Shown here piece by piece: positions 3,387-38,998 of a DNA stretch of 43,158 nt. The notes beneath the pieces are model-generated. The model saw nothing but the letters and a program-made list of their open reading frames with translations, ran no database searches and had not been told where the DNA came from. Source of the DNA: Hyphomicrobiales bacterium (GTDB taxonomy: Bacteria; Desulfobacterota; Desulfobacteria; Desulfobacterales; SpSt-501); contig JBLMXM010000139.1 of assembly GCA_050257775.1 (NCBI GenBank), positions 1 to 43,158 of the forward strand, read 5' to 3'. The position numbers and the translations under genes were made by a program. Positions within the stretch are counted from its first letter, which is position 1. Every line of letters begins with the position of its first letter.

Positions 3387-4766
3387 CTACGCCAGGCCAT
3401 AACCCTTCATTTTGTTATGCAGGGTCTTGCGGGTGATGCCCAGGCGCCGGGCAGCCTCGCTCTTGTTCTGGCCGGTGGCCTCCAGGGTTGACATGATCGC
3501 TTCCTTTTCAATCTCCTCCAGGGAGCGCGATCCGTCGGACGACGGGGGCGCGGGAGAACGCTGCTCTTTGTTTTCAGCGTATTTCTGGACGATGTGGAGG
3601 GGCAGCTGCTTTTCGGTGATGTGATCCCCGGTCAATAGAATCACTGCTCGCTCCACGGCGTTTTCCAGTTCCCGAACGTTGCCGGGCCACTCGTGCTTGA
3701 GAAGCATATCCATGGCCAGGGGTGTGAAGCCCTTGACCGTTTTGCGGTTCTGGGCGGCAAACCGTTCCAAAAAGTGCTGGGCCAGCACGGGAATGTCCTC
3801 CAGGCGATCCCGCAGCGGCGGAACCATCAAGCGCATCACGTTCAGGCGGTAAAATAGGTCTTCGCGGAAACGGCCCCCGGCGACCTCGGCTTCCAAGTCG
3901 CGGTTGGTGGCGGCCACCACCCTCACATTCACCGGAAGGACTTCCTCTCCGCCCACCCGCTGAATCTCCTTCTCCTGCAGCACCCTCAGCAGCTTGGCCT
4001 GCATGGTTGAGCTGGTTTCGCTGATTTCGTCCAGAAATATGGTGCCGCGGTTGGCCTGCATGAAACGACCCTCGTGGCGTCTGTCTGCGCCCGTAAAAGC
4101 GCCCTTTTCGTGGCCGAATAATTCTGACTCGAGCAGGGTTTCGGTAATGGCCGCGCAATTGACCACCACCAAGGGCTTATCTTTGCGCGGGCTGTTGAAG
4201 TGCAGCGAGCGGGCGATCAGCTCTTTGCCCGTGCCACTCTCGCCGGTAATCAACACCGTGGCTTCGGAGGGGGCGACCATGGCCACCATGTCGATCAGGG
4301 ATTTCATCGCTTTGCTTCGTCCAATCAGATCGGTGAGATCCAAGTCGGCGCCCAGCTTGGATCGGAGGAGCATGTTTTCCGCCTTGAGGCCGACATGCTC
4401 GCGTGCCCGTTCAATGGCCCGCTTCAGGACCTCGAAGTCCAGCGGCTTGATCAGGTAATCGTAAGCACCGGCCTTAAGCGCTTCCACCGCGGATTCCACC
4501 GATGAATAGGCGGTCATGATGATGATGGGGATAGAAGGGTTGTAGGCCTTGATCTTCTCAAGGGCTTCGATGCCGCCCATGCGGGCCATGCGAACATCCA
4601 TCAGAATCAGATCAACCGCCCGGGTCTTGACGGTTTCCACGGCGACCGCCCCGTCGTCGACTGTATCGACGTCATACCCCCAGCTCCGGGTGATGGTCTT
4701 CAGCGCGCTTAAATGACCGGGGTCGTCGTCCACGATCAGAATCCGGGTTGAAATTGAAGCAGCCAT
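3387..4766 (-). CDS. Sigma-54-dependent response regulator (ZraR/HydG/NtrC family)
   Basis: Start at the ATG at 4766 (MAASISTRILIVDDD). REC domain (DLILMDVRM), AAA+ Walker A GESGTGKE, GAFTGA motif (EKGAFTGA), C-terminal Fis-type HTH (AARRLGITRKTLHNKMK). Confidence 0.92.
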   Translation of the reverse strand: MAASISTRILIVDDDPGHLSALKTITRSWGYDVDTVDDGAVAVETVKTRAVDLILMDVRMARMGGIEALEKIKAYNPSIPIIIMTAYSSVESAVEALKAGAYDYLIKPLDFEVLKRAIERAREHVGLKAENMLLRSKLGADLDLTDLIGRSKAMKSLIDMVAMVAPSEATVLITGESGTGKELIARSLHFNSPRKDKPLVVVNCAAITETLLESELFGHEKGAFTGADRRHEGRFMQANRGTIFLDEISETSSTMQAKLLRVLQEKEIQRVGGEEVLPVNVRVVAATNRDLEAEVAGGRFREDLFYRLNVMRLMVPPLRDRLEDIPVLAQHFLERFAAQNRKTVKGFTPLAMDMLLKHEWPGNVRELENAVERAVILLTGDHITEKQLPLHIVQKYAENKEQRSPAPPSSDGSRSLEEIEKEAIMSTLEATGQNKSEAARRLGITRKTLHNKMKGYGLA

Positions 4767-4773
4767 CGCAACC

Positions 4774-6573
4774 TCAAGAGGGTTCACTGCCGCGGCAGGG
4801 TAACCGGATGGCGAAAAGGCTTCCCCGGCCGGGAGCGCTCTCCGTGGTGATGTGGCCCTGATGAGCTTCGATAATCTTGTAGACGATCGGAAGCCCCAGG
4901 CCGGTTCCGGTTTTCTTGGTGGTAAAATACGGATCGAATATCTTGCCGAGGTTTTCAGGGGTAATTCCTTTCCCGGTATCCGATACAGTAATTTTAAAAT
5001 CCGTGGAGCCGTCAGCAAAGCAATTCACGGCCAACACGCCGCCGTCGTCCATCGCCTCGATGGCATTGAGATAGAGATTCAGCAGGCACTGAGTCAATCG
5101 ATCCGGATCGATCATCGCCCGGCAGACTCCCTCTCCAACGGTCAACTCGATGCGAATGCCCTTGGCGGCCGCATCCTGCTGAATCAGTTTAAGCGAACGG
5201 TCGAGCAGGGGCGCCAGGTCGGTTGCTCGGCGCTTCACATCCGTGGGCCGGGCAAATTCCAGAAGCTCCGTTATCGCCCGGTTCAACCGGTCCACCTCCT
5301 GGATCATGACGCCGGCGGCCTCGTGCGCATCGCTGCCGCTCTCGAACTGGCCGGCGAAAAAGGATGCCAGGCCCTTGATGGCGCTCAACGGGTTGCGGAT
5401 TTCATGCGCAACGCCGGCGGCCAGACCGCCCAGCGCCGCCAGTTTTTCCTGGCGTCGGATTTCCTCCTGCAGTCGGCGCACCTCGCCCAGGTCCCGTAAG
5501 ATCATAACCTCTCCGACAAAGTCCCCCACCTCGTTGACAATCCGGGCGGCGCTGACGCTGACCGGCACACTGCGGTTCCCCGCAAAACGGCACTCCACCT
5601 CCTGCTCGGTGATCGGTGCGCCCAAGTCGAGCGCTTTTTGAAGACGGCACAAACTCGCCGGAAGAAATTCGACCGGTTCCTTGCGCATTACTGCTCCGAC
5701 CGCAAGCCCGGTAATTTTTTCCGCGGCCTCGTTGAAAAAGGTGACCCGCCCGCTGCGGTCTGTCGCCATCAACCCGACCGGCAGATGGGCCACCACTTCG
5801 TCGGCGAATGCGCTGGTGTCGCGCAGCGACCGCCTGGCGCTGCGGTAACTCTGCATCCAAAACAAGGACACCAATCCGCCGAATCCCAGAACCAGAAGGA
5901 CAGCCGACAAAACCACCGTAGTCCGGATATCGGCTCGGGCCGCTTCCTCAAATGGGGTGACGTCCAGCCCCGCGACGATAATAAGCTTCTGGCGGGTTTG
6001 AGGTGCAAACCAATCATTCTCCGGTCCGCCAAATCCCATGGGGTGGTGGCCCATCATACCGGCCATGCCGCCAAGGTCTCGTTCCTCGCCGGCCGCCAGC
6101 GGACGGAAATAGCGGTGAACCTCGAAAGCTCTCCGGCCGCCGCCCAAATCAACCAGCTCCCAGTCTTCCTGAAAGTCGGGCCCGATATGGGCCAGCTTGG
6201 CGCCCTTGCGAAAAGCGGTTCCAATTTTGGACGGGTCACTGTCGGCCACAATCTTTCCGTCCTGGTCGACAACCGCCATGAAAAGGACATCCGGGAGGCG
6301 GGCCGTTTCCTCAAGCAACCGTTGCACCTGCTGGCCGCCCCAGTTCATTCCCATCATCCCGGTTCTTGCGCCGGCCTCAACGGCGCGAATCAAGGCCGCC
6401 CCCTTGGTGGTGAGCAACTCCGACATGTAACGCTCCTCCCGGTTGGTATTCTGAACGGCCAGCACGATCACCACCACCAGAAGAATGGCGGTTGATCCGA
6501 GAATGATCCACGGGGAGGTCTGCAGCGCGTTGTGAAAACGCTGTTGAAGCCGATAAAACATCCTGGTTCCCAC
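4774..6573 (-). CDS. Sensor histidine kinase (ZraS/HydH-like; periplasmic loop, PAS, HisKA, HATPase)
   Basis: H-box HEIRNPLSAIKG, N box LNLYLNAIEAM, G boxes DTGKGI and GTGLGL, and two TM segments flanking a roughly 170 aa loop. GTG at 6573 or ATG at 6561 as start. Stop lies 8 nt before the regulator start. Confidence 0.9.
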   Translation of the reverse strand: MGTRMFYRLQQRFHNALQTSPWIILGSTAILLVVVIVLAVQNTNREERYMSELLTTKGAALIRAVEAGARTGMMGMNWGGQQVQRLLEETARLPDVLFMAVVDQDGKIVADSDPSKIGTAFRKGAKLAHIGPDFQEDWELVDLGGGRRAFEVHRYFRPLAAGEERDLGGMAGMMGHHPMGFGGPENDWFAPQTRQKLIIVAGLDVTPFEEAARADIRTTVVLSAVLLVLGFGGLVSLFWMQSYRSARRSLRDTSAFADEVVAHLPVGLMATDRSGRVTFFNEAAEKITGLAVGAVMRKEPVEFLPASLCRLQKALDLGAPITEQEVECRFAGNRSVPVSVSAARIVNEVGDFVGEVMILRDLGEVRRLQEEIRRQEKLAALGGLAAGVAHEIRNPLSAIKGLASFFAGQFESGSDAHEAAGVMIQEVDRLNRAITELLEFARPTDVKRRATDLAPLLDRSLKLIQQDAAAKGIRIELTVGEGVCRAMIDPDRLTQCLLNLYLNAIEAMDDGGVLAVNCFADGSTDFKITVSDTGKGITPENLGKIFDPYFTTKKTGTGLGLPIVYKIIEAHQGHITTESAPGRGSLFAIRLPCRGSEPS

Positions 6574-6676: not shown

Positions 6677-7921
6677 TCACTTAGGTAGAGAAGTAGAAGG
6701 CCCGGGGCTGCCCCAGACGGCATAGAATGCGGTCCCCAACGCGCCACAACAAAATGCCCCGATGAAGTTTACCTGTGGACTGATCTCCCACAGAAACGCG
6801 CCTCCGAACGCTGCAACCGATACAACAATATCCCGGACCAGGTAGTACAGGCCGAACATGCCCGCCCGGTGGGTCTCCGGTGAAAGTTCGACGATCAGGG
6901 CCTTGCGGGTCGGCTCGCCGAACTCCTTGAGCCCTCGGACGACGAAAGCCGGGACAAGCCATGCAAAACTCTCAGAGAACATCAGCACCAGTGGAAAGCA
7001 GGTAAACAGGACAAAGGTGGTGAGCACAAACGGCTTCTTACGGCCACGGTCGGCAAGCCAGGCGACGGGTATGTAGATGAGCACGGCCGTTGCCATCTCG
7101 ATCGTGGTGAGCGCCCCGAACTGCACCGCGCTCACCGGTTCGGCAATCCGCTTCATGCACCAGACTACCACGAACGCTTGGGTGATCTGTTCGCAGAACC
7201 GGATGAGGATATCGGAAACCAACAAATTCTTGAGATCAGGGCCCATCAACCGCCACATGGACCGGGGCGATCTGCCGGCGGGGTCCGAGACCGCGGCAGT
7301 CTCTCCCGGAGGAGGATCCTCGATAAGCTTCTGTTGCAGCATGATGGCCAGGAGGGCGAACACGAGGGCGAAACCGAAGGCCCAGCGCACCCCGTCGCGC
7401 TCCCCCCAGGCCTCAATGCAGAATCCTCCGAGAACCGGGCCCAAGGCCATTGGGATCCGGTTGACCAGCGAATGCATGCTGACCCCCATGGTGCGCTTGC
7501 CCGGTGGAAGCACGCGGGCGATCAGGCCCATGGTGGCGGGAAGGGATATCGACGACCATGAAATGAACAGCACCGAACCTGCAATCACGGCCTGCCAGGC
7601 CGGGACCAGGATGACGATGACGAACCCGGCCATGGCGATGAGGTTGAACACCAGCAACGCACGCTTGGTGCCGACCCGGTCCGAGAGATACCCTCCGGGG
7701 AAAGAGTAGAGAGCGGACAGAAGGTTGTCCAGTCCGTTCAGAAAGCCGATGGAAATGGCCCCGCCTCCCAGAGCCATCATGTACACCGGCAGGAACCGCT
7801 CCGACATGCGCTCGCCCATGCCGACGAGCACTACCATGCCCAGAACGGCGATGGTGCTGCGCTGAAGACCGAGAAAATTCAGAATTCTTCCCGGCAGGGT
7901 CGTTGAGGTGTCTGCGGCCAT
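6677..7921 (-). CDS. MFS transporter
   Basis: Roughly 12 hydrophobic segments across 414-430 aa, with a typical MFS two-half organisation and a central loop (PPPGETAAVSDPAGRSPRSMWR). ATG at 7921 preferred; GTG at 7969 is the alternative. Confidence 0.8.
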   Translation of the reverse strand: MAADTSTTLPGRILNFLGLQRSTIAVLGMVVLVGMGERMSERFLPVYMMALGGGAISIGFLNGLDNLLSALYSFPGGYLSDRVGTKRALLVFNLIAMAGFVIVILVPAWQAVIAGSVLFISWSSISLPATMGLIARVLPPGKRTMGVSMHSLVNRIPMALGPVLGGFCIEAWGERDGVRWAFGFALVFALLAIMLQQKLIEDPPPGETAAVSDPAGRSPRSMWRLMGPDLKNLLVSDILIRFCEQITQAFVVVWCMKRIAEPVSAVQFGALTTIEMATAVLIYIPVAWLADRGRKKPFVLTTFVLFTCFPLVLMFSESFAWLVPAFVVRGLKEFGEPTRKALIVELSPETHRAGMFGLYYLVRDIVVSVAAFGGAFLWEISPQVNFIGAFCCGALGTAFYAVWGSPGPSTSLPK

Positions 7922-7973
7922 GGGATCCGAAGCGGCCGGCGGCTTGCGTGCCCGGCGCCGGGCTTTCACCAGG

Positions 7974-8417
7974 TTAGTTCAGGGACTTCTGCTTGGCCGC
8001 TTCCAGCCGGCACCAGGCGTAAAGCGCGTCGTAGACCTCGAACTGGCGCTCGAGGTTTTGCAGATCGTCGGGATAACGCAGGCTGTAGCCGACGGCAATC
8101 GCCTCCAGTCCGGCGGCCAGGGGGTCCTGCTCGAGGCGGTCGGTGTCTGCGGCGTTGACGATCCGTGCCATGCGCTGCAGCGCCCGGTCGGTCAGGTTGT
8201 AGTTGCGGATGATGACATCGAAGGTGCACAGGTCGCCGTCGTGGGTCAGTGCGGCGCCCGGCGTGTCGAACGGGATGGCCCCTTCCCGCTCGGCCACGGC
8301 CATGACTTCACTCTTGGGTGCAAACAGGAACTGGGCATCCGAATCGATGAAACGGGTAATCAGCCAGGGGCAGGCCACCCTGTCTACATGGACATGCGAC
8401 CGAGTGATCCAGAGCAT
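7974..8417 (-). CDS. ChrB C-terminal domain (chromate-resistance-like) protein
   Basis: Start at the ATG at 8417. MLWITRSHVHVDRVACPWLITRFIDSDAQFLF is the characteristic ChrB_C N-terminal pattern. 147 aa. Confidence 0.75.
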   Translation of the reverse strand: MLWITRSHVHVDRVACPWLITRFIDSDAQFLFAPKSEVMAVAEREGAIPFDTPGAALTHDGDLCTFDVIIRNYNLTDRALQRMARIVNAADTDRLEQDPLAAGLEAIAVGYSLRYPDDLQNLERQFEVYDALYAWCRLEAAKQKSLN

Positions 8418-22596: not shown

Positions 22597-23478
22597 ATGT
22601 CGAGTTTCAACTACGGGATCATCGAGGACGCGGCAAAGGAATTGTACATCCGGGCGCTTTGCGATCTTCCACCGGACGTCCGCGACGCGCTGAAGAAGGC
22701 CTACGCAAGAGAAACCAAGGCCGCCGCTAAAGAGGCTTTCAAAGCGATGCTGAAGGCGGTTGACATCGCCGACCGTCAGAAGACCCTGGTGTGCCAGGAC
22801 ACCGGCCTGCCCATTTACATGGTCAAGCTCGGAACCCGCTTTCACTGGGACGGCGCCGAAATACAGGAGCGGCTCAGCGTCGGGGCCCGGCGCGCAACCC
22901 AGGAGTTCCCCTTCCGCGGGAGCTCCACCCATCCCATCCACCGGGTGAACCCCCAGACCTCGGTGGGCAAGAATCTACCGGTAGTGTATGTCGACTTCAT
23001 CAAGGGCGCGGAGTACCTGGATATCCTCATGGTGCCGAAAGGCTCCGGGTCGGAAAACATGAGCGCCATGAAAATGTTCATACCGGCGGATGGTGTAAAG
23101 GCGATCAAGAAGTTCATCATCGACACCTTCATCGCCTCGGGGGCCAACCCGTGTCCTCCGGGCGTCATCGGCGTGGGGATCGGCGGAACGGCCGACCTGG
23201 TGATGCGGCTGGCCAAGGAGGCCATCGCACGGCCGATCGGCCGGCGCAACGAGGATCCGGACATCGCCCGGTTGGAAACCGAGCTCGAGGAGGCCATCAA
23301 CGCGACCGGAATCGGCGCCATGGGGCTCGGCGGGGATGTCTCCACCCTCGGAGTGCACATCGAGATGGCCTATACCCACATCACGCAGAACCCTGTCGCC
23401 GTGAACACCCAGTGCTGGCCGGCTCGGCGGGCGCGGGCCCGGATCTTCCCGGACGAACGCATCGAATATGGCTATTAG
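22597..23478 (+). CDS. Fe-S hydro-lyase, tartrate/fumarate subfamily, alpha subunit (class I fumarase-type)
   Basis: Start at the ATG at 22597 with AAAGGAGG RBS. LVCQDTGLPIY (CQDTG motif). 293 aa. Confidence 0.88.
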   Translation: MSSFNYGIIEDAAKELYIRALCDLPPDVRDALKKAYARETKAAAKEAFKAMLKAVDIADRQKTLVCQDTGLPIYMVKLGTRFHWDGAEIQERLSVGARRATQEFPFRGSSTHPIHRVNPQTSVGKNLPVVYVDFIKGAEYLDILMVPKGSGSENMSAMKMFIPADGVKAIKKFIIDTFIASGANPCPPGVIGVGIGGTADLVMRLAKEAIARPIGRRNEDPDIARLETELEEAINATGIGAMGLGGDVSTLGVHIEMAYTHITQNPVAVNTQCWPARRARARIFPDERIEYGY

Positions 23479-23496
23479 AAGCCATAAAAGATTATA

Positions 23497-23719
23497 ATGG
23501 CACGCCGTAGCCCGGATGAACGATTGAGGCAGCGGCTGACGGTCTGAGCCGCTTACGGGCGCTTGGACCGGACCCGATAACAAAGCTACATCAGAGCCCA
23601 ACCAACCGCGCTAACCTCCATCCGTTTATCCGGAGACTGGCCTGGTCCGGTCCTAGAGCCCGTTGGCGGCGAGTTTCAGCCGCGTACGAAACCGCTTATC
23701 CGGGTGGAGGCGCCTACCT
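23497..23719 (+). repeat. Structured intergenic repeat element, copy A (223 nt; candidate ncRNA or MITE-like element)
   Basis: Aligns end to end with 32781-33003 (+) and with the reverse complement of 38765-38989. The 20-mer GGCGGCGAGTTTCAGCCGCG is identical in all three copies. Shared hairpin AGCGGCT-N9-AGCCGCT and long-range stems (details in findings). No conserved ORF. Confidence 0.85.
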
Positions 23720-23767
23720 TATATTGGTGTTAGCGCGAGCGAGCTTGACAGGAAGGAGCATTGAGCT

Positions 23768-31973: not shown

Positions 31974-32722
31974 GAGCCGGCCCCCTTCTGGCGAGCCGGG
32001 AACTCGCCCAGGGGATAATACGCCATCATGTCGGACTTGATCTTCTCCATGGACCGAACCGGGTCCAACCGCCAGTTGGTGGGACAGGCGGCCAGGATCT
32101 CGACCATGCCGAAGCCGCGGTCCTGCAGCTGCATCTCGAAAGCCTTGCGGATCGCCTTCTTGGTTTTCAGGATGTGTGGCACGTCGTGAACGGAGGCCCG
32201 GGCAATGTATGCTTCGGGCGCGATCACGGAGAGCATCTCGGCCATCCGCAGCGGGTAGCCGGTCTGCTTCGGGTCGCGTCCGGCCGGGTAGCTGGTCGTG
32301 GCCTGGCCGATGAGGGTCGTGGGGGCCTGCTGCCCGCCGGTCGCCCCGAACACGCCGTTGTTCACATAGATCACGGTGATGCGTTCGCAGCGGCCGGCGG
32401 CGTGCACGATTTCGCCGGTGCCGATGGCCGCCATGTCCCCGTCGCCCTGGTAAGTGAACACGACCGCCTGCGGCTGGGCGCGCTTGATGCCGGTGGCCAC
32501 GGCCGGTCCGCGGCCGTGCAGGGCCATGACCATGTCGCAGTCAAATTGGCGCCAGTTCCGAACCGAACAGCCGGCGGAGGTCACGCCGATGGCCCGCCGC
32601 GTGATGTCCAGCTCGTCCATGACCTCGGCCACGAGACGATGAATCGTGCCATGGGAGCACCCCGGGCAGTACGGGAACGGGATATCCGTCATGGCATCCG
32701 GTTTCTTGAAGACGATCTGCAT
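31970..32722 (-). CDS. 2-oxoacid:ferredoxin oxidoreductase, beta (TPP) subunit (paralog 2)
   Basis: MQIVFKKPDAMTDIPFPYCPGCSHG and YQGDGDMAAIGTGEIVH. ATG at 32722 preferred over GTG at 32734. Confidence 0.88.
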   Translation of the reverse strand: MQIVFKKPDAMTDIPFPYCPGCSHGTIHRLVAEVMDELDITRRAIGVTSAGCSVRNWRQFDCDMVMALHGRGPAVATGIKRAQPQAVVFTYQGDGDMAAIGTGEIVHAAGRCERITVIYVNNGVFGATGGQQAPTTLIGQATTSYPAGRDPKQTGYPLRMAEMLSVIAPEAYIARASVHDVPHILKTKKAIRKAFEMQLQDRGFGMVEILAACPTNWRLDPVRSMEKIKSDMMAYYPLGEFPARQKGAGS

Positions 32723-32780
32723 GCTGAACCCCACTAAGCACTCATGGTCCGCCTTAGCGAGACCCCTATTATGGATGAAA

Positions 32781-33003
32781 ATGACGCGCCGCAGCCCGGG
32801 TGAGCGGTTGAGGAAGCGGCTGACTGTCTGAGCCGCCTACGGGGCCTCGGCCCGGGCCCCATACAAGAATATCGGCAACGCCATGACGGGCCGCAACTTC
32901 TACGGCAGCTTTCTCGGAGACGGATCCGGCCTGGGCATAGGCCCCGTTGGCGGCGAGTTTCAGCCGCGAACGAAATCGCTTGCCCGGGCTGCGACGCCTA
33001 CCT
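32781..33003 (+). repeat. Structured intergenic repeat element, copy B (223 nt)
   Basis: Same length and ends as copy A (ATGACGCGCC...GACGCCTACCT). Central region diverged, but stems are retained through compensatory changes. Splits the OFOR-2 alpha and beta genes. Its plus-strand orientation is antisense to that operon. Confidence 0.85.
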
Positions 33004-33013
33004 CATTTTCCTT

Positions 33014-34138
33014 TTAACCGGAGCAAAACCGGACGACCTCCCGATGGATCTCATCCGGGCTGAAGATGTGGCCGCCGCCGGTGCCGTAATGCTGAACTTC
33101 GGCCTCGCCGCAGGCGGCCAGACGGACATCTTCGATCATCTGGCCGTTATTGGCCTCCACCACCAGCAGCCGCCTGAGGCCGGACCCTACCGCCTCCTTT
33201 AGCGCCTTCGCCGGGAAGGGACAAAGCGAGACAGGCCGGAAAAGCCCGACCGAAAGGCCTTCATGTCGAGCGGCCTGCACGGCGTCCAGAGCGATGCGCG
33301 CCGAGCTGCCGAACGCCACCACCCCGGCGCGGGCCCCATCCAGCAGAACGGCCTCGTGGCGCTGCTCCCGTTCCACCATGCGCTCGTACTTGGCCTTGAG
33401 CTCGCGGTTCCAGGCGATGAGCTCTTCGTCGGTGTGGGGCGCCACCTTGATGACCTTGCGCGGCTGATCCCCCTTGCCCCGGACAGCCCAGTCCTTCTCC
33501 GGCGCTGTCTGCCGCGGGAGTCCGGCGGTGTCCACCGGCTCCATCATCTGACCGAGGATGGCGTCCGAAAGGATGATGACCGGGTTGCGGTAGAGGTCCG
33601 CCAGCTCGAACGCACGGTAGGTCAGTTCGAAGAGTTCCTGGGCGCTTGCCGGCCCGAATACCAGGCACTGGTAGTCGCCGTGCCCGCCGCCCCGGGTGGC
33701 CAGCCGGTAGTCCGCCTGGGACGACGCGATCCGACCGAGACCGGGACCGGCCCTGGACACGCACACCACGACAGCAGGCAGCTGAGCGGCGGCGAGCGCC
33801 GTGAGGCCTTCGCCTAGCAGCGTGAAACCCGGCCCGGAGGACGACGTCATGCAGCGAGCACCCCCGGCCGCTGCGCCGAACACCATGTTGATGCCGGCCA
33901 GCTCGCTTTCGCTCTGCAGAAAGGTGCCTCCCGCCTGGGGCAGGTACTGGGCCATATACTCGAACAGTTCGTTCTGGGGTGTGATCGGGTAGCCGAAGAA
34001 GAACCGGCACCCGGCCCGGATGGCCCCCTCCCCCACGGCCTCGTTGCCCCGCATGAGCGTGAGCTCGCGTGTGTCCGTCATGAGGACCTTTGCCCTTTTT
34101 CCCTTGATCCCTTTACCCCTCGGACCCTTTTTAATCAT
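33014..34138 (-). CDS. 2-oxoacid:ferredoxin oxidoreductase, alpha subunit (paralog 2)
   Basis: LMRGNEAVGEGAIRAGCRFFFGYPITPQNELFEYM. The start at 34138 (MIKKG...) forms an ATGA overlap with the CoA-transferase stop. The ATG at 34081 (MTDTREL) is the alternative. The longer track ORF up to 34453 is unsupported. Confidence 0.85.
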   Translation of the reverse strand: MIKKGPRGKGIKGKRAKVLMTDTRELTLMRGNEAVGEGAIRAGCRFFFGYPITPQNELFEYMAQYLPQAGGTFLQSESELAGINMVFGAAAGGARCMTSSSGPGFTLLGEGLTALAAAQLPAVVVCVSRAGPGLGRIASSQADYRLATRGGGHGDYQCLVFGPASAQELFELTYRAFELADLYRNPVIILSDAILGQMMEPVDTAGLPRQTAPEKDWAVRGKGDQPRKVIKVAPHTDEELIAWNRELKAKYERMVEREQRHEAVLLDGARAGVVAFGSSARIALDAVQAARHEGLSVGLFRPVSLCPFPAKALKEAVGSGLRRLLVVEANNGQMIEDVRLAACGEAEVQHYGTGGGHIFSPDEIHREVVRFCSG

Positions 34139-38722: not shown

Positions 38723-38764
38723 GGGTTGCCCTCGGCTGGCGACGTAAAGCCCATTATTAATTTA

Positions 38765-38989
38765 AGGTAGGCGCCTCCGCCCGGGTAATCGGTTTCGGTT
38801 CGCGGCTGAAACTCGCCGCCGACGGGCTCTAAGACCGGACCAGGCCCGTCTCCGGATAAACGGCTGGAGGTAAGCTCCATTGGCCGGGCTCCGATGCAGC
38901 GTTCGCATGAGGTCCGGTTCAAGAGCCCGTAAGCGGCTCAGACAGTCAGCCGCTGCCCTCTACCGATCACCCGAGCTGCGGCGCGTCAT
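38765..38989 (-). repeat. Structured intergenic repeat element, copy C (225 nt, inverted relative to A and B)
   Basis: The reverse complement aligns along its whole length with copy A. Lies between the binding-protein gene and livH, in the sense orientation of that operon. The track ORF 38695..38922(-) inside it is not conserved in copies A and B. Confidence 0.85.
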
Positions 38990-38998
38990 ATTTATTCT

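Follow-up and report, generated by a model that had tools for sequence, protein, structure and literature searches.

A miniature transposable element superfamily of sulfate-reducing Desulfobacterota probably carries a conserved module read in single-stranded form

Correia/NEMIS of Neisseria, ERIC of the enterobacteria, RUP/BOX of pneumococcus and bcr1 of the Bacillus cereus group are all hairpin-forming MITEs, and long hairpins in mRNA are targets of RNase III, as is the case for Correia and ERIC elements. The miniature elements of the IS200/IS605 group (PATE) have other hallmarks: their hairpins are subterminal, they insert 3′ of a defined tetra- or pentanucleotide, and they create no target-site duplication (TSD). 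In the IS66 family, the inverted repeat begins with GTAAGCG and the direct repeat is 8 bp long (PMC11946415). The present analysis concerns a repeat that occurs three times in the window, i.e., the whole stretch of 43,158 nucleotides that was analysed (contig JBLMXM010000139.1). It has several of the features by which a MITE is recognised: a size of 225-275 nt, within the usual range of about 50-800 bp, no coding capacity, dispersed multi-copy occurrence, a target-site duplication and insertion polymorphism. We consider it probable that the repeat belongs to a superfamily of non-autonomous MITEs in sulfate-reducing Desulfobacterota, which carries a conserved module read in single-stranded form.

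An earlier note, made by reading the sequence, had reported three structured copies in the window, and all three were recovered where it had placed them, with 85% mean column identity in the alignment. The rods, which fold into long hairpins, lie at 23497-23719 on the + strand (copy A), 32781-33003 on the + strand (copy B) and 38765..38989 on the − strand (copy C), and the 20-mer GGCGGCGAGTTTCAGCCGCG has three exact occurrences in the window for zero expected by chance. The element ends proposed in the earlier note hold for copy C, a bare 225-nt rod with termini ATGACGCGCC...GGCGCCTACCT, and have to be moved outward for the other two, which carry extra flanking modules. The complete insertion of copy A spans 23479..23729 (+; 251 nt) and is composed of a degenerate left module (AAGCCATAAAAGATTATA), the rod, which measures 223 nt without the outer modules, and a right module (TATATTGGTG). 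That of copy B spans 32739..33013 (+; 275 nt) and comprises a left module Y (CACTCATGGTCC...GGATGAAA), the rod and a right module X (CATTTTCCTT). The window thus contains three forms: C is a bare rod, A adds degenerate modules on its flanks, and B is the full composite. The 5′ half of the core, a motif that is invariant or nearly so across families, reads CTGACGGTCTGAG in copy A (23536..23548, +) and CTGACTGTCTGAG in copies B (32820..32832, +) and C (38937..38949, −), while the 3′ half reads GAGTTTCAG in all of them (23671..23679, + in A; 32955..32963, + in B; 38806..38814, − in C). Pfam agrees with the flanking gene pairs that had been read as fumarase, OFOR and binding protein/permease: copy A is bordered by Fumerase and Fumerase_C, copy B by POR_N + PFOR_II and TPP_enzyme_C, and copy C by Peripla_BP_6 and a BPD_transp_2 permease. 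Copies A and C have the same orientation as their host operons, and copy B lies antisense within the OFOR operon.

Empty sites in syntenic relatives, whose spacers measure 10-84 nt against about 280 nt in the window, delimit each of these insertions. For copy A, the spacer between fumarase alpha and beta is 289 nt in the window and 33-45 nt in three relatives with FumB proteins 89-93% identical (L231, L232 and L233); L231 keeps the entire order DUF3604-Fumerase-Fumerase_C-TctBAC, while L232 and L233 share the fumarase pair only. Alignment of filled and empty sites identifies the target duplication TTAG on the + strand, to the left at 23475..23478, where it contains the TAG stop codon of fumarase alpha, and to the right at 23730-23733; in their wider context, the junctions read TATTAG on the left and TGTTAG on the right, of which TTAG is the shared part. 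For copy B, the OFOR alpha-beta spacer is 10-23 nt in the empty sites L239, L241 and L242, and the flanks CTAAG (32734-32738) and TTAAC (33014-33018, the latter containing the OFOR-alpha stop codon) have only TAA in common. For copy C, the empty sites L234-L236 have a spacer of 84 nt vs 276 nt in the window, and both the reading of the sequence and the empty-site comparison reveal a perfect 5-bp TSD, TAAAT, located on the − strand upstream at 38990..38994 and downstream at 38760-38764. These data show that every window copy has inserted into a short run rich in A/T (TTAG, TTAA, TAAAT) that overlaps or adjoins a stop codon. The copies lie in tiny operon spacers because, in a GC-rich genome, A/T-rich and often stop-containing targets are mostly found there. 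The MITE-like option, which the earlier note had offered beside that of a functional RNA, is thus supported by empty sites for all three copies, by the perfect 5-bp TSD at copy C and by the clean TSDs of sister families described below.

Two observations were made in the vicinity of these insertions. The program-called OFOR beta ORF begins at GTG 32734, in sequence adjoining copy B; the empty-site comparison shows that the true start is an ATG with its reverse complement at 32720-32722. In the empty site of copy C (L234:2417-2500), a terminator-like GC-rich hairpin is followed by T residues (GGGACGCTCCCGC-TCGC-GGGAGCGTCC-TTATTGAT), and the window spacer (38723-38998) does not contain it, which implies that the region around the copy C insertion was also remodelled.

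The insertion data bear on two explanations in which the repeat serves as an RNA and mobility plays no part. An immobile multi-copy family of stand-alone small-RNA genes, arisen by ancient duplication, would fit a strand-specific conserved fold with invariant loops that is absent from Rfam; however, insertion polymorphism and target duplications at the window sites, the dozens of copies per MAG at unrelated sites and the failure to find a conserved promoter make this origin extremely improbable. The other explanation, close to the processing/stability module for operons considered in the earlier note, is a cis-acting RNA module co-opted by the host as a processing site, stabiliser or terminator. 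The window copies do lie between functionally coupled genes, the structure is kept at orthologous sites, and the susceptibility of long mRNA hairpins to RNase III would provide a means of action. Orientation, however, was random across 107 distinct sites: between co-directional genes, 21 copies were in the same sense and 20 in the opposite one, and a further 17 lay between convergent and 16 between divergent genes. Such randomness argues against a cis-acting signal in host mRNAs, as does the antisense position of copy B. Close relatives, in addition, run the same operons without the element, and the preference for A/T-rich stop-codon targets accounts for its location. We consider such co-option very unlikely, and the view that a host-operon processing or stability signal is what the element is finds no support.

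Beyond the window, more than 100 copies, 70-78% identical, were found in Desulfobacterales MAGs and sediment metagenomes. In species-representative genomes, the invariant 19-mer occurs at at least 109 loci. About half of these, comprising all the non-Desulfobacterales ones, were discarded as chance 19-mer matches in GC-rich genomes, since the 5′ motif was present in none of them. Among the matches listed, 47 are full-length copies, 70-78% identical to those of the window, and their hosts are Desulfobacterales, Desulfobacteraceae or 'deltaproteobacterial' MAGs, with no others. A metagenome scan anchored on two loop motifs added 120 loci, mostly from sediment, with 66 more full copies. Copies are dense, with three in the 43-kb window and up to about 12 contigs per MAG among the matches listed. 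The names given to homologues of its proteins put the window close to Desulfatiglandaceae, in the Thermodesulfobacteriota. Because the genome and metagenome scans were both anchored on core motifs and required them, the invariance of the core is partly an ascertainment effect; the shared layout around the core is not explained by how the copies were found. Copies that match the right end alone are truncations. Some copies, belonging to two families, lie directly downstream of tRNA genes (L005:2160-2260, L137:3420-3500).

Database comparisons were negative. Rfam 15 gives no match at the gathering score in the window, in agreement with the earlier note, which could assign the repeat to no RNA family, and nothing relevant at E≤1 in ten loci (three GC-rich and seven AT-rich). 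BLASTN of GC-rich and AT-rich representatives against plasmids and a search of viral contigs with the core pattern returned no match, and no description of this repeat family was found among the papers searched. The absence of a conserved ORF also stands: a frame beginning MKMMRRSPDERLR... is open in many MAG copies, but frameshifts or stops interrupt it in all three window copies and in several MAG copies, and a protein-coding reading was rejected. One AT-rich contig carries a cobalamin riboswitch unrelated to the repeat (L122:472-661, −; Rfam RF00174, 86 bits).

Among MAG copies, the composite form is the rule, with a left module (CACTCATGGCCC-loop-GGGCCGCCACGGTGCATGAAA), the rod and TATTTTCGTG, bordered by YTAAA on either side. 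In the main family, no TSD was recovered at fixed offsets; when the copies were anchored by their outer modules, YTAAA emerged on both sides, but rare variants disagree between the two sides. Most composite MAG copies have no clean TSD, with only YTAAA-like sequence at both sides, so that the ends given for the composite form are provisional. Element termini include CAGAAATTTGAAAAC..., GTAACTTCTCAA..., CACTCATGG.../...CGTG and ATGACGCGCC.../...GCCTACCT. With nhmmer, the unit scores about 150 bits against its own reverse complement and about 200 bits in forward orientation; the extreme termini of the window form are imperfectly inverted (ATGACGCGCC vs AGGTAGGCGCC), and clear terminal inverted repeats are found in the two AT-rich sister families, AT1 and AT2. 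The outer modules can also stand alone, with no rod between them, as TATTTTCGTGTTAAA + CACTCATGGCCC...GGTGCATGAAA + ATTCTATTTTCG (L104:~7900-7990, L050:~7060-7130, L094:~3560-3650), so that the shell looks like a separate small element in which the rod is nested.

Short tandem arrays lie beside or inside many MAG copies (L104:7850-8000, L050:6990-7250, L013, L005, L026, L087, L084). One type is made of three to six 9-mer units, CCGTTGAGC or CGGTTGAGC, which resemble GAGCGGTTGAG of the element and are often followed by GAAGGATATCATCGATTTTATCGA. Heptamer arrays of three to five units, GAGTTTC or AAGTTTC, border some copies (L018:6050-6150, L011:690-790, L087:800-880, L107:7150-7250); GAGTTTCA is present both in these arrays and in the invariant 3′ core motif, a hint that one protein may bind both. 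At L029:1500-1620, a site orthologous to that of L049/L085, the 5′ arm runs directly into the inverted 3′ motif (…CAGCGGCTGAAACTCGCCGCCTACCT), and this short form reflects either a deletion by fold-back or a collapse of the assembly at the hairpin. None of the readings of the modules as integron attC, Xer/dif-like sites, k-turn, hammerhead, sigma-54 or LexA boxes fitted by eye.

The folding of each window copy is far stronger than that of shuffled sequence (z-scores: -5.3, -7.8 and -8.3), and their minimum-energy fold is a single long hairpin, not a set of local hairpins. The compensatory changes described in the earlier note can be read directly from the sequence, since the outer long-range stem is GGGCTCT/AGAGCCC in copy C and GGGGCCT/AGGCCCC in copy B, with further changes at positions 6 and 10 of the terminal stem, and they hold in larger sets. 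In 58 sequences obtained by a search that left the stems free, 96.2% of cells pair in the long-range structure, against 35-46% in slid controls, and double changes are found in 18 of 43 pairs. The earlier note had also drawn two local hairpins (AGCGGCT-N9-AGCCGCY and GGCGGC-GAGTTTCA-GCCGC), and here the data decide otherwise. In the disputed region, the long-range helix AGYCGC/GGCGGC has three compensated pairs, and the local alternative has one per hairpin. In a set of 29 sequences from several families, the long-range pairing holds in 94.5% of cells, with 67 double-change cells, while the local hairpins pair in 63.5%, no better than shuffled or slid controls; RNAalifold across families finds double changes in 29 of 39 pairs. 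The other families settle the question, and the element is a single rod interrupted at fixed positions. It is a near-palindrome of ~225 nt whose + strand is shown by these comparisons to fold into one long rod, and the predicted interruptions are a conserved asymmetric internal loop and bulge (5′ CUGA-CUG-UY-UGA-G opposite 3′ GAGUU-UCAG), a UA/UU loop and a U.U mismatch in UUAG/UUAG. Covariation between the arms is nevertheless partly expected for any inverted-repeat DNA element.

The strand specificity of the structure was examined through its G.U and A.C pairs. In the paired columns, 261 G.U pairs are found vs 24 A.C pairs (11:1), and the excess does not come from a mutational strand bias, since G>A and C>T changes are equal in the unpaired columns (122 vs 114). 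Other families show the same direction, with 42 G.U vs 11 A.C. The comparison was extended to 11 pairs of copies from different MAGs or samples, the two members of each pair lying at the same genomic site. In these pairs, the differences at paired positions comprise 46 changes between Watson-Crick and G.U, five between Watson-Crick and A.C, and five double changes from one Watson-Crick pair to another; divergence is 9.7% at paired positions vs 17.8% at unpaired ones. Some of these orthologous pairs differ more in the rod centre than in the flanks, so that replacement or gene conversion could inflate the apparent in-place selection; with the comparison limited to the four pairs whose rod centre is about as divergent as the flanks, 13 G.U vs 2 A.C are counted. 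As far as sequence comparison can tell, the rod is thus shown to be kept by selection on the + strand only, as a single strand, and this appears to apply between orthologous-site copies too. One pair of copies (L050:1143-1364 and L088:2537-2757) has flanks about 94% identical and quite different rod centres and left modules, a pattern suggestive of gene conversion or replacement of the copy at an unchanged site.

Sister families extend the comparison to unrelated stems. A further 45 hits of the metagenome scan escape the family HMM. They are rods of AT-rich sequence whose stems are unrelated but whose layout is the same: a stem, CTGACTGTYTGAG, a 5-6 bp stem, the TA/TT loop, a 6-bp stem, UUAG/UUAG with its U.U mismatch and a further stem. 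On the return strand, GAGTTTCAG stands opposite CTGACTGTYTGAG in the AT-rich sister families too, and in every family the core arms differ in a fixed, polar way. The AT1 family has termini CAG...CTG and clean 5-bp TSDs at seven independent sites; its host encodes QrcB and QrcD and is therefore a sulfate-reducing member of the Desulfobacterota. The AT2 family has termini GTAAC...GTTAC and 8-bp TSDs at about six distinct sites, of which four are exact and two match at seven of eight positions, so that both IS66 features, termini and duplication length, are found there in relaxed form. A third rod family, of mid-GC content, is represented by an inverted pair at L125:2620-2763 (−) and 6088-6231 (+), around a hemD-hemE fusion and a ferrochelatase gene, each copy being bordered by CACTTTC-type tandem repeats. 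This pair was considered as a parent transposon and rejected, as it encloses hemD-hemE and ferrochelatase and no transposase. Across these families, the interior appears constant while termini, stems and TSD length vary, which is the reverse of what would be expected if transposase binding alone were conserved.

These comparisons are what separates the favoured explanation from that of a purely selfish palindromic MITE, in which the rod would be a by-product of long terminal inverted repeats, the core a double-stranded site for a transposase or host protein, and nothing would be read single-stranded. Much of the behaviour of the element is ordinary in this respect: TSDs and empty sites are those of DDE-type cut-and-paste or copy-and-paste transposition, orientation is random, no promoter was found in the consensus scans, and arm covariation is expected of inverted repeats. 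A G.U over A.C ratio of 11:1 without mutational strand bias, repeated between orthologous-site copies, is not accounted for, nor are the polar difference of the arms at the core in every family and the conservation of the interior when the transposase-bound termini vary between families. We regard this explanation as unlikely.

The enzymes that would move the element were sought in its neighbourhood. Clustering of ORFs of at least 130 aa near the copies revealed no recurring protein family, only common metabolic paralogues and orthologous neighbours; no autonomous parent or transposase with matching ends was found among the 240 loci, in which the AT1 and AT2 termini occur at miniature copies only. 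A strand-specific hairpin could also be selected through a single-stranded DNA intermediate, as in REP/REPIN-RAYT, IS200/IS605 miniatures or IS91/Helitron-like elements, with the top-strand hairpin and its loops recognised and cut by an HUH enzyme. The selection is indeed strand-specific and tolerates G.T, the flanking modules and short tandem arrays form a BIME-like mosaic, and the reverse complement of the 3′ end of the window copies, GTAGGCGCC, recalls the GTAG head of REP. However, the clean 5- and 8-bp TSDs of copy C, AT1 and AT2 are not made by HUH/Y1 transposition, no recurring Y1 or RAYT-like gene lies near the copies, the unit of 225-300 nt is far above REP size, and orientation is unbiased relative to genes, with no hint of a replication-strand bias. 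Such an intermediate is therefore decidedly unlikely as an overall explanation.

The model that we favour remains that of a non-autonomous MITE superfamily whose core would be a recognition module read in single-stranded form. The module would stay constant while its outer shells differ, and different transposases would move these shells in trans, with junctions of three types (5-bp, 8-bp IS66-like and YTAR-type). The single-stranded form would preferably be an RNA transcribed from the + strand of the element itself and bound by an element- or host-encoded protein; the main alternative would be the folded top DNA strand during mobilisation. Independent transcription is hypothetical, since consensus scans inside the element predict no consistent sigma-70 promoter or terminator. 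A bolder proposal, which we put forward tentatively and regard as possible but doubtful, is that the core (CUGACUGUYUGAG opposite GAGUUUCAG, with its UA/UU loop and U.U mismatch) represents a functional RNA module of a kind not described before, repeatedly repackaged in the MITE shells of different transposases across the Desulfobacterota, which would make the element a mobile non-coding RNA gene instead of mere transposon ends. Such a module could, for example, be a protein-binding scaffold or a regulatory or guide-like RNA needed by the elements or exploited by the host.

The repeat also has practical consequences for the genomes that carry it. Operon spacers of about 10-80 nt grow to about 280 nt when it inserts, and ORF calls are distorted, as with the wrong OFOR beta start. 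The sole public contig that encodes the exact fumarase-beta protein of the window (L110; Logan SRR24208146, 1401 nt) ends 96 nt upstream of the gene; the corresponding position in the window falls within copy A, an indication that short-read assemblies of Desulfobacterota may be broken by the repeat. Its insertion polymorphisms are also readily usable for typing strains of sulfate-reducing communities. Should the core be read as RNA or in the form of a folded single strand, it would constitute a clade-wide non-coding module riding several kinds of miniature transposon, a combination undescribed for classical bacterial MITEs.

Comparison with the known systems places the repeat nearest to the hairpin-forming MITEs and sets it apart from them by its core. 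Like Correia/NEMIS, ERIC, RUP/BOX and bcr1, it is small, non-coding, multi-copy and intergenic, often inside operons, and the whole element is an imperfect hairpin palindrome with short TSDs and, presumably, a transposase supplied in trans. It has no known sequence similarity to these MITEs, and its core is conserved across families that differ in termini, stems, GC content and TSD length; the strong excess of G.U over A.C and the preservation of structure in changes between orthologous-site copies are measurements made here on the present element. The likeness to IS66 lies in the AT2 termini, which begin with GTAA, in their 8-bp TSD and in the reverse complement of the right end of the window copies, which reads GTAGGCG. 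Unlike IS66, copy C has a TSD of 5 bp instead of 8, the left end ATGACGCG does not match, no IS66-type transposase lies near any copy, and the arms of ~100 nt are much longer than the IS66 inverted repeats (20-30 bp), so that the window copies fall outside the definition derived from IS66. With REP/BIME and REPIN-RAYT, the repeat shares an intergenic location, a palindromic form, a hairpin under selection, mosaic modules and persistence at the same site across species. REP units, however, measure 20-40 nt, with a GTAG or CGTC head, and REPINs about 100 nt, without TSDs and with a RAYT gene, whereas the unit here is 225-300 nt, has TSDs and has no RAYT seen near its copies, which does not fit the REP/REPIN definition. 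The 5- and 8-bp TSDs and the absence of a TnpA(Y1)/TnpB gene nearby likewise do not fit an IS200/IS605 miniature (PATE). The omega-RNA of IS605/IS607, HEARO and the IS110 bridge RNA offer a parallel in idea only, as structured RNAs that serve a mobile element and have conserved loops inside variable helices; here, no Rfam match to HEARO or the others was obtained, genes for TnpB, IscB or IS110 are absent from the vicinity, TSDs of 5 or 8 bp are not made by those elements, and their multi-domain fold differs from the simple rod. Hairpin-forming MITEs are thus already known, but a strand-specific core common to shells with different transposition signatures is unusual.
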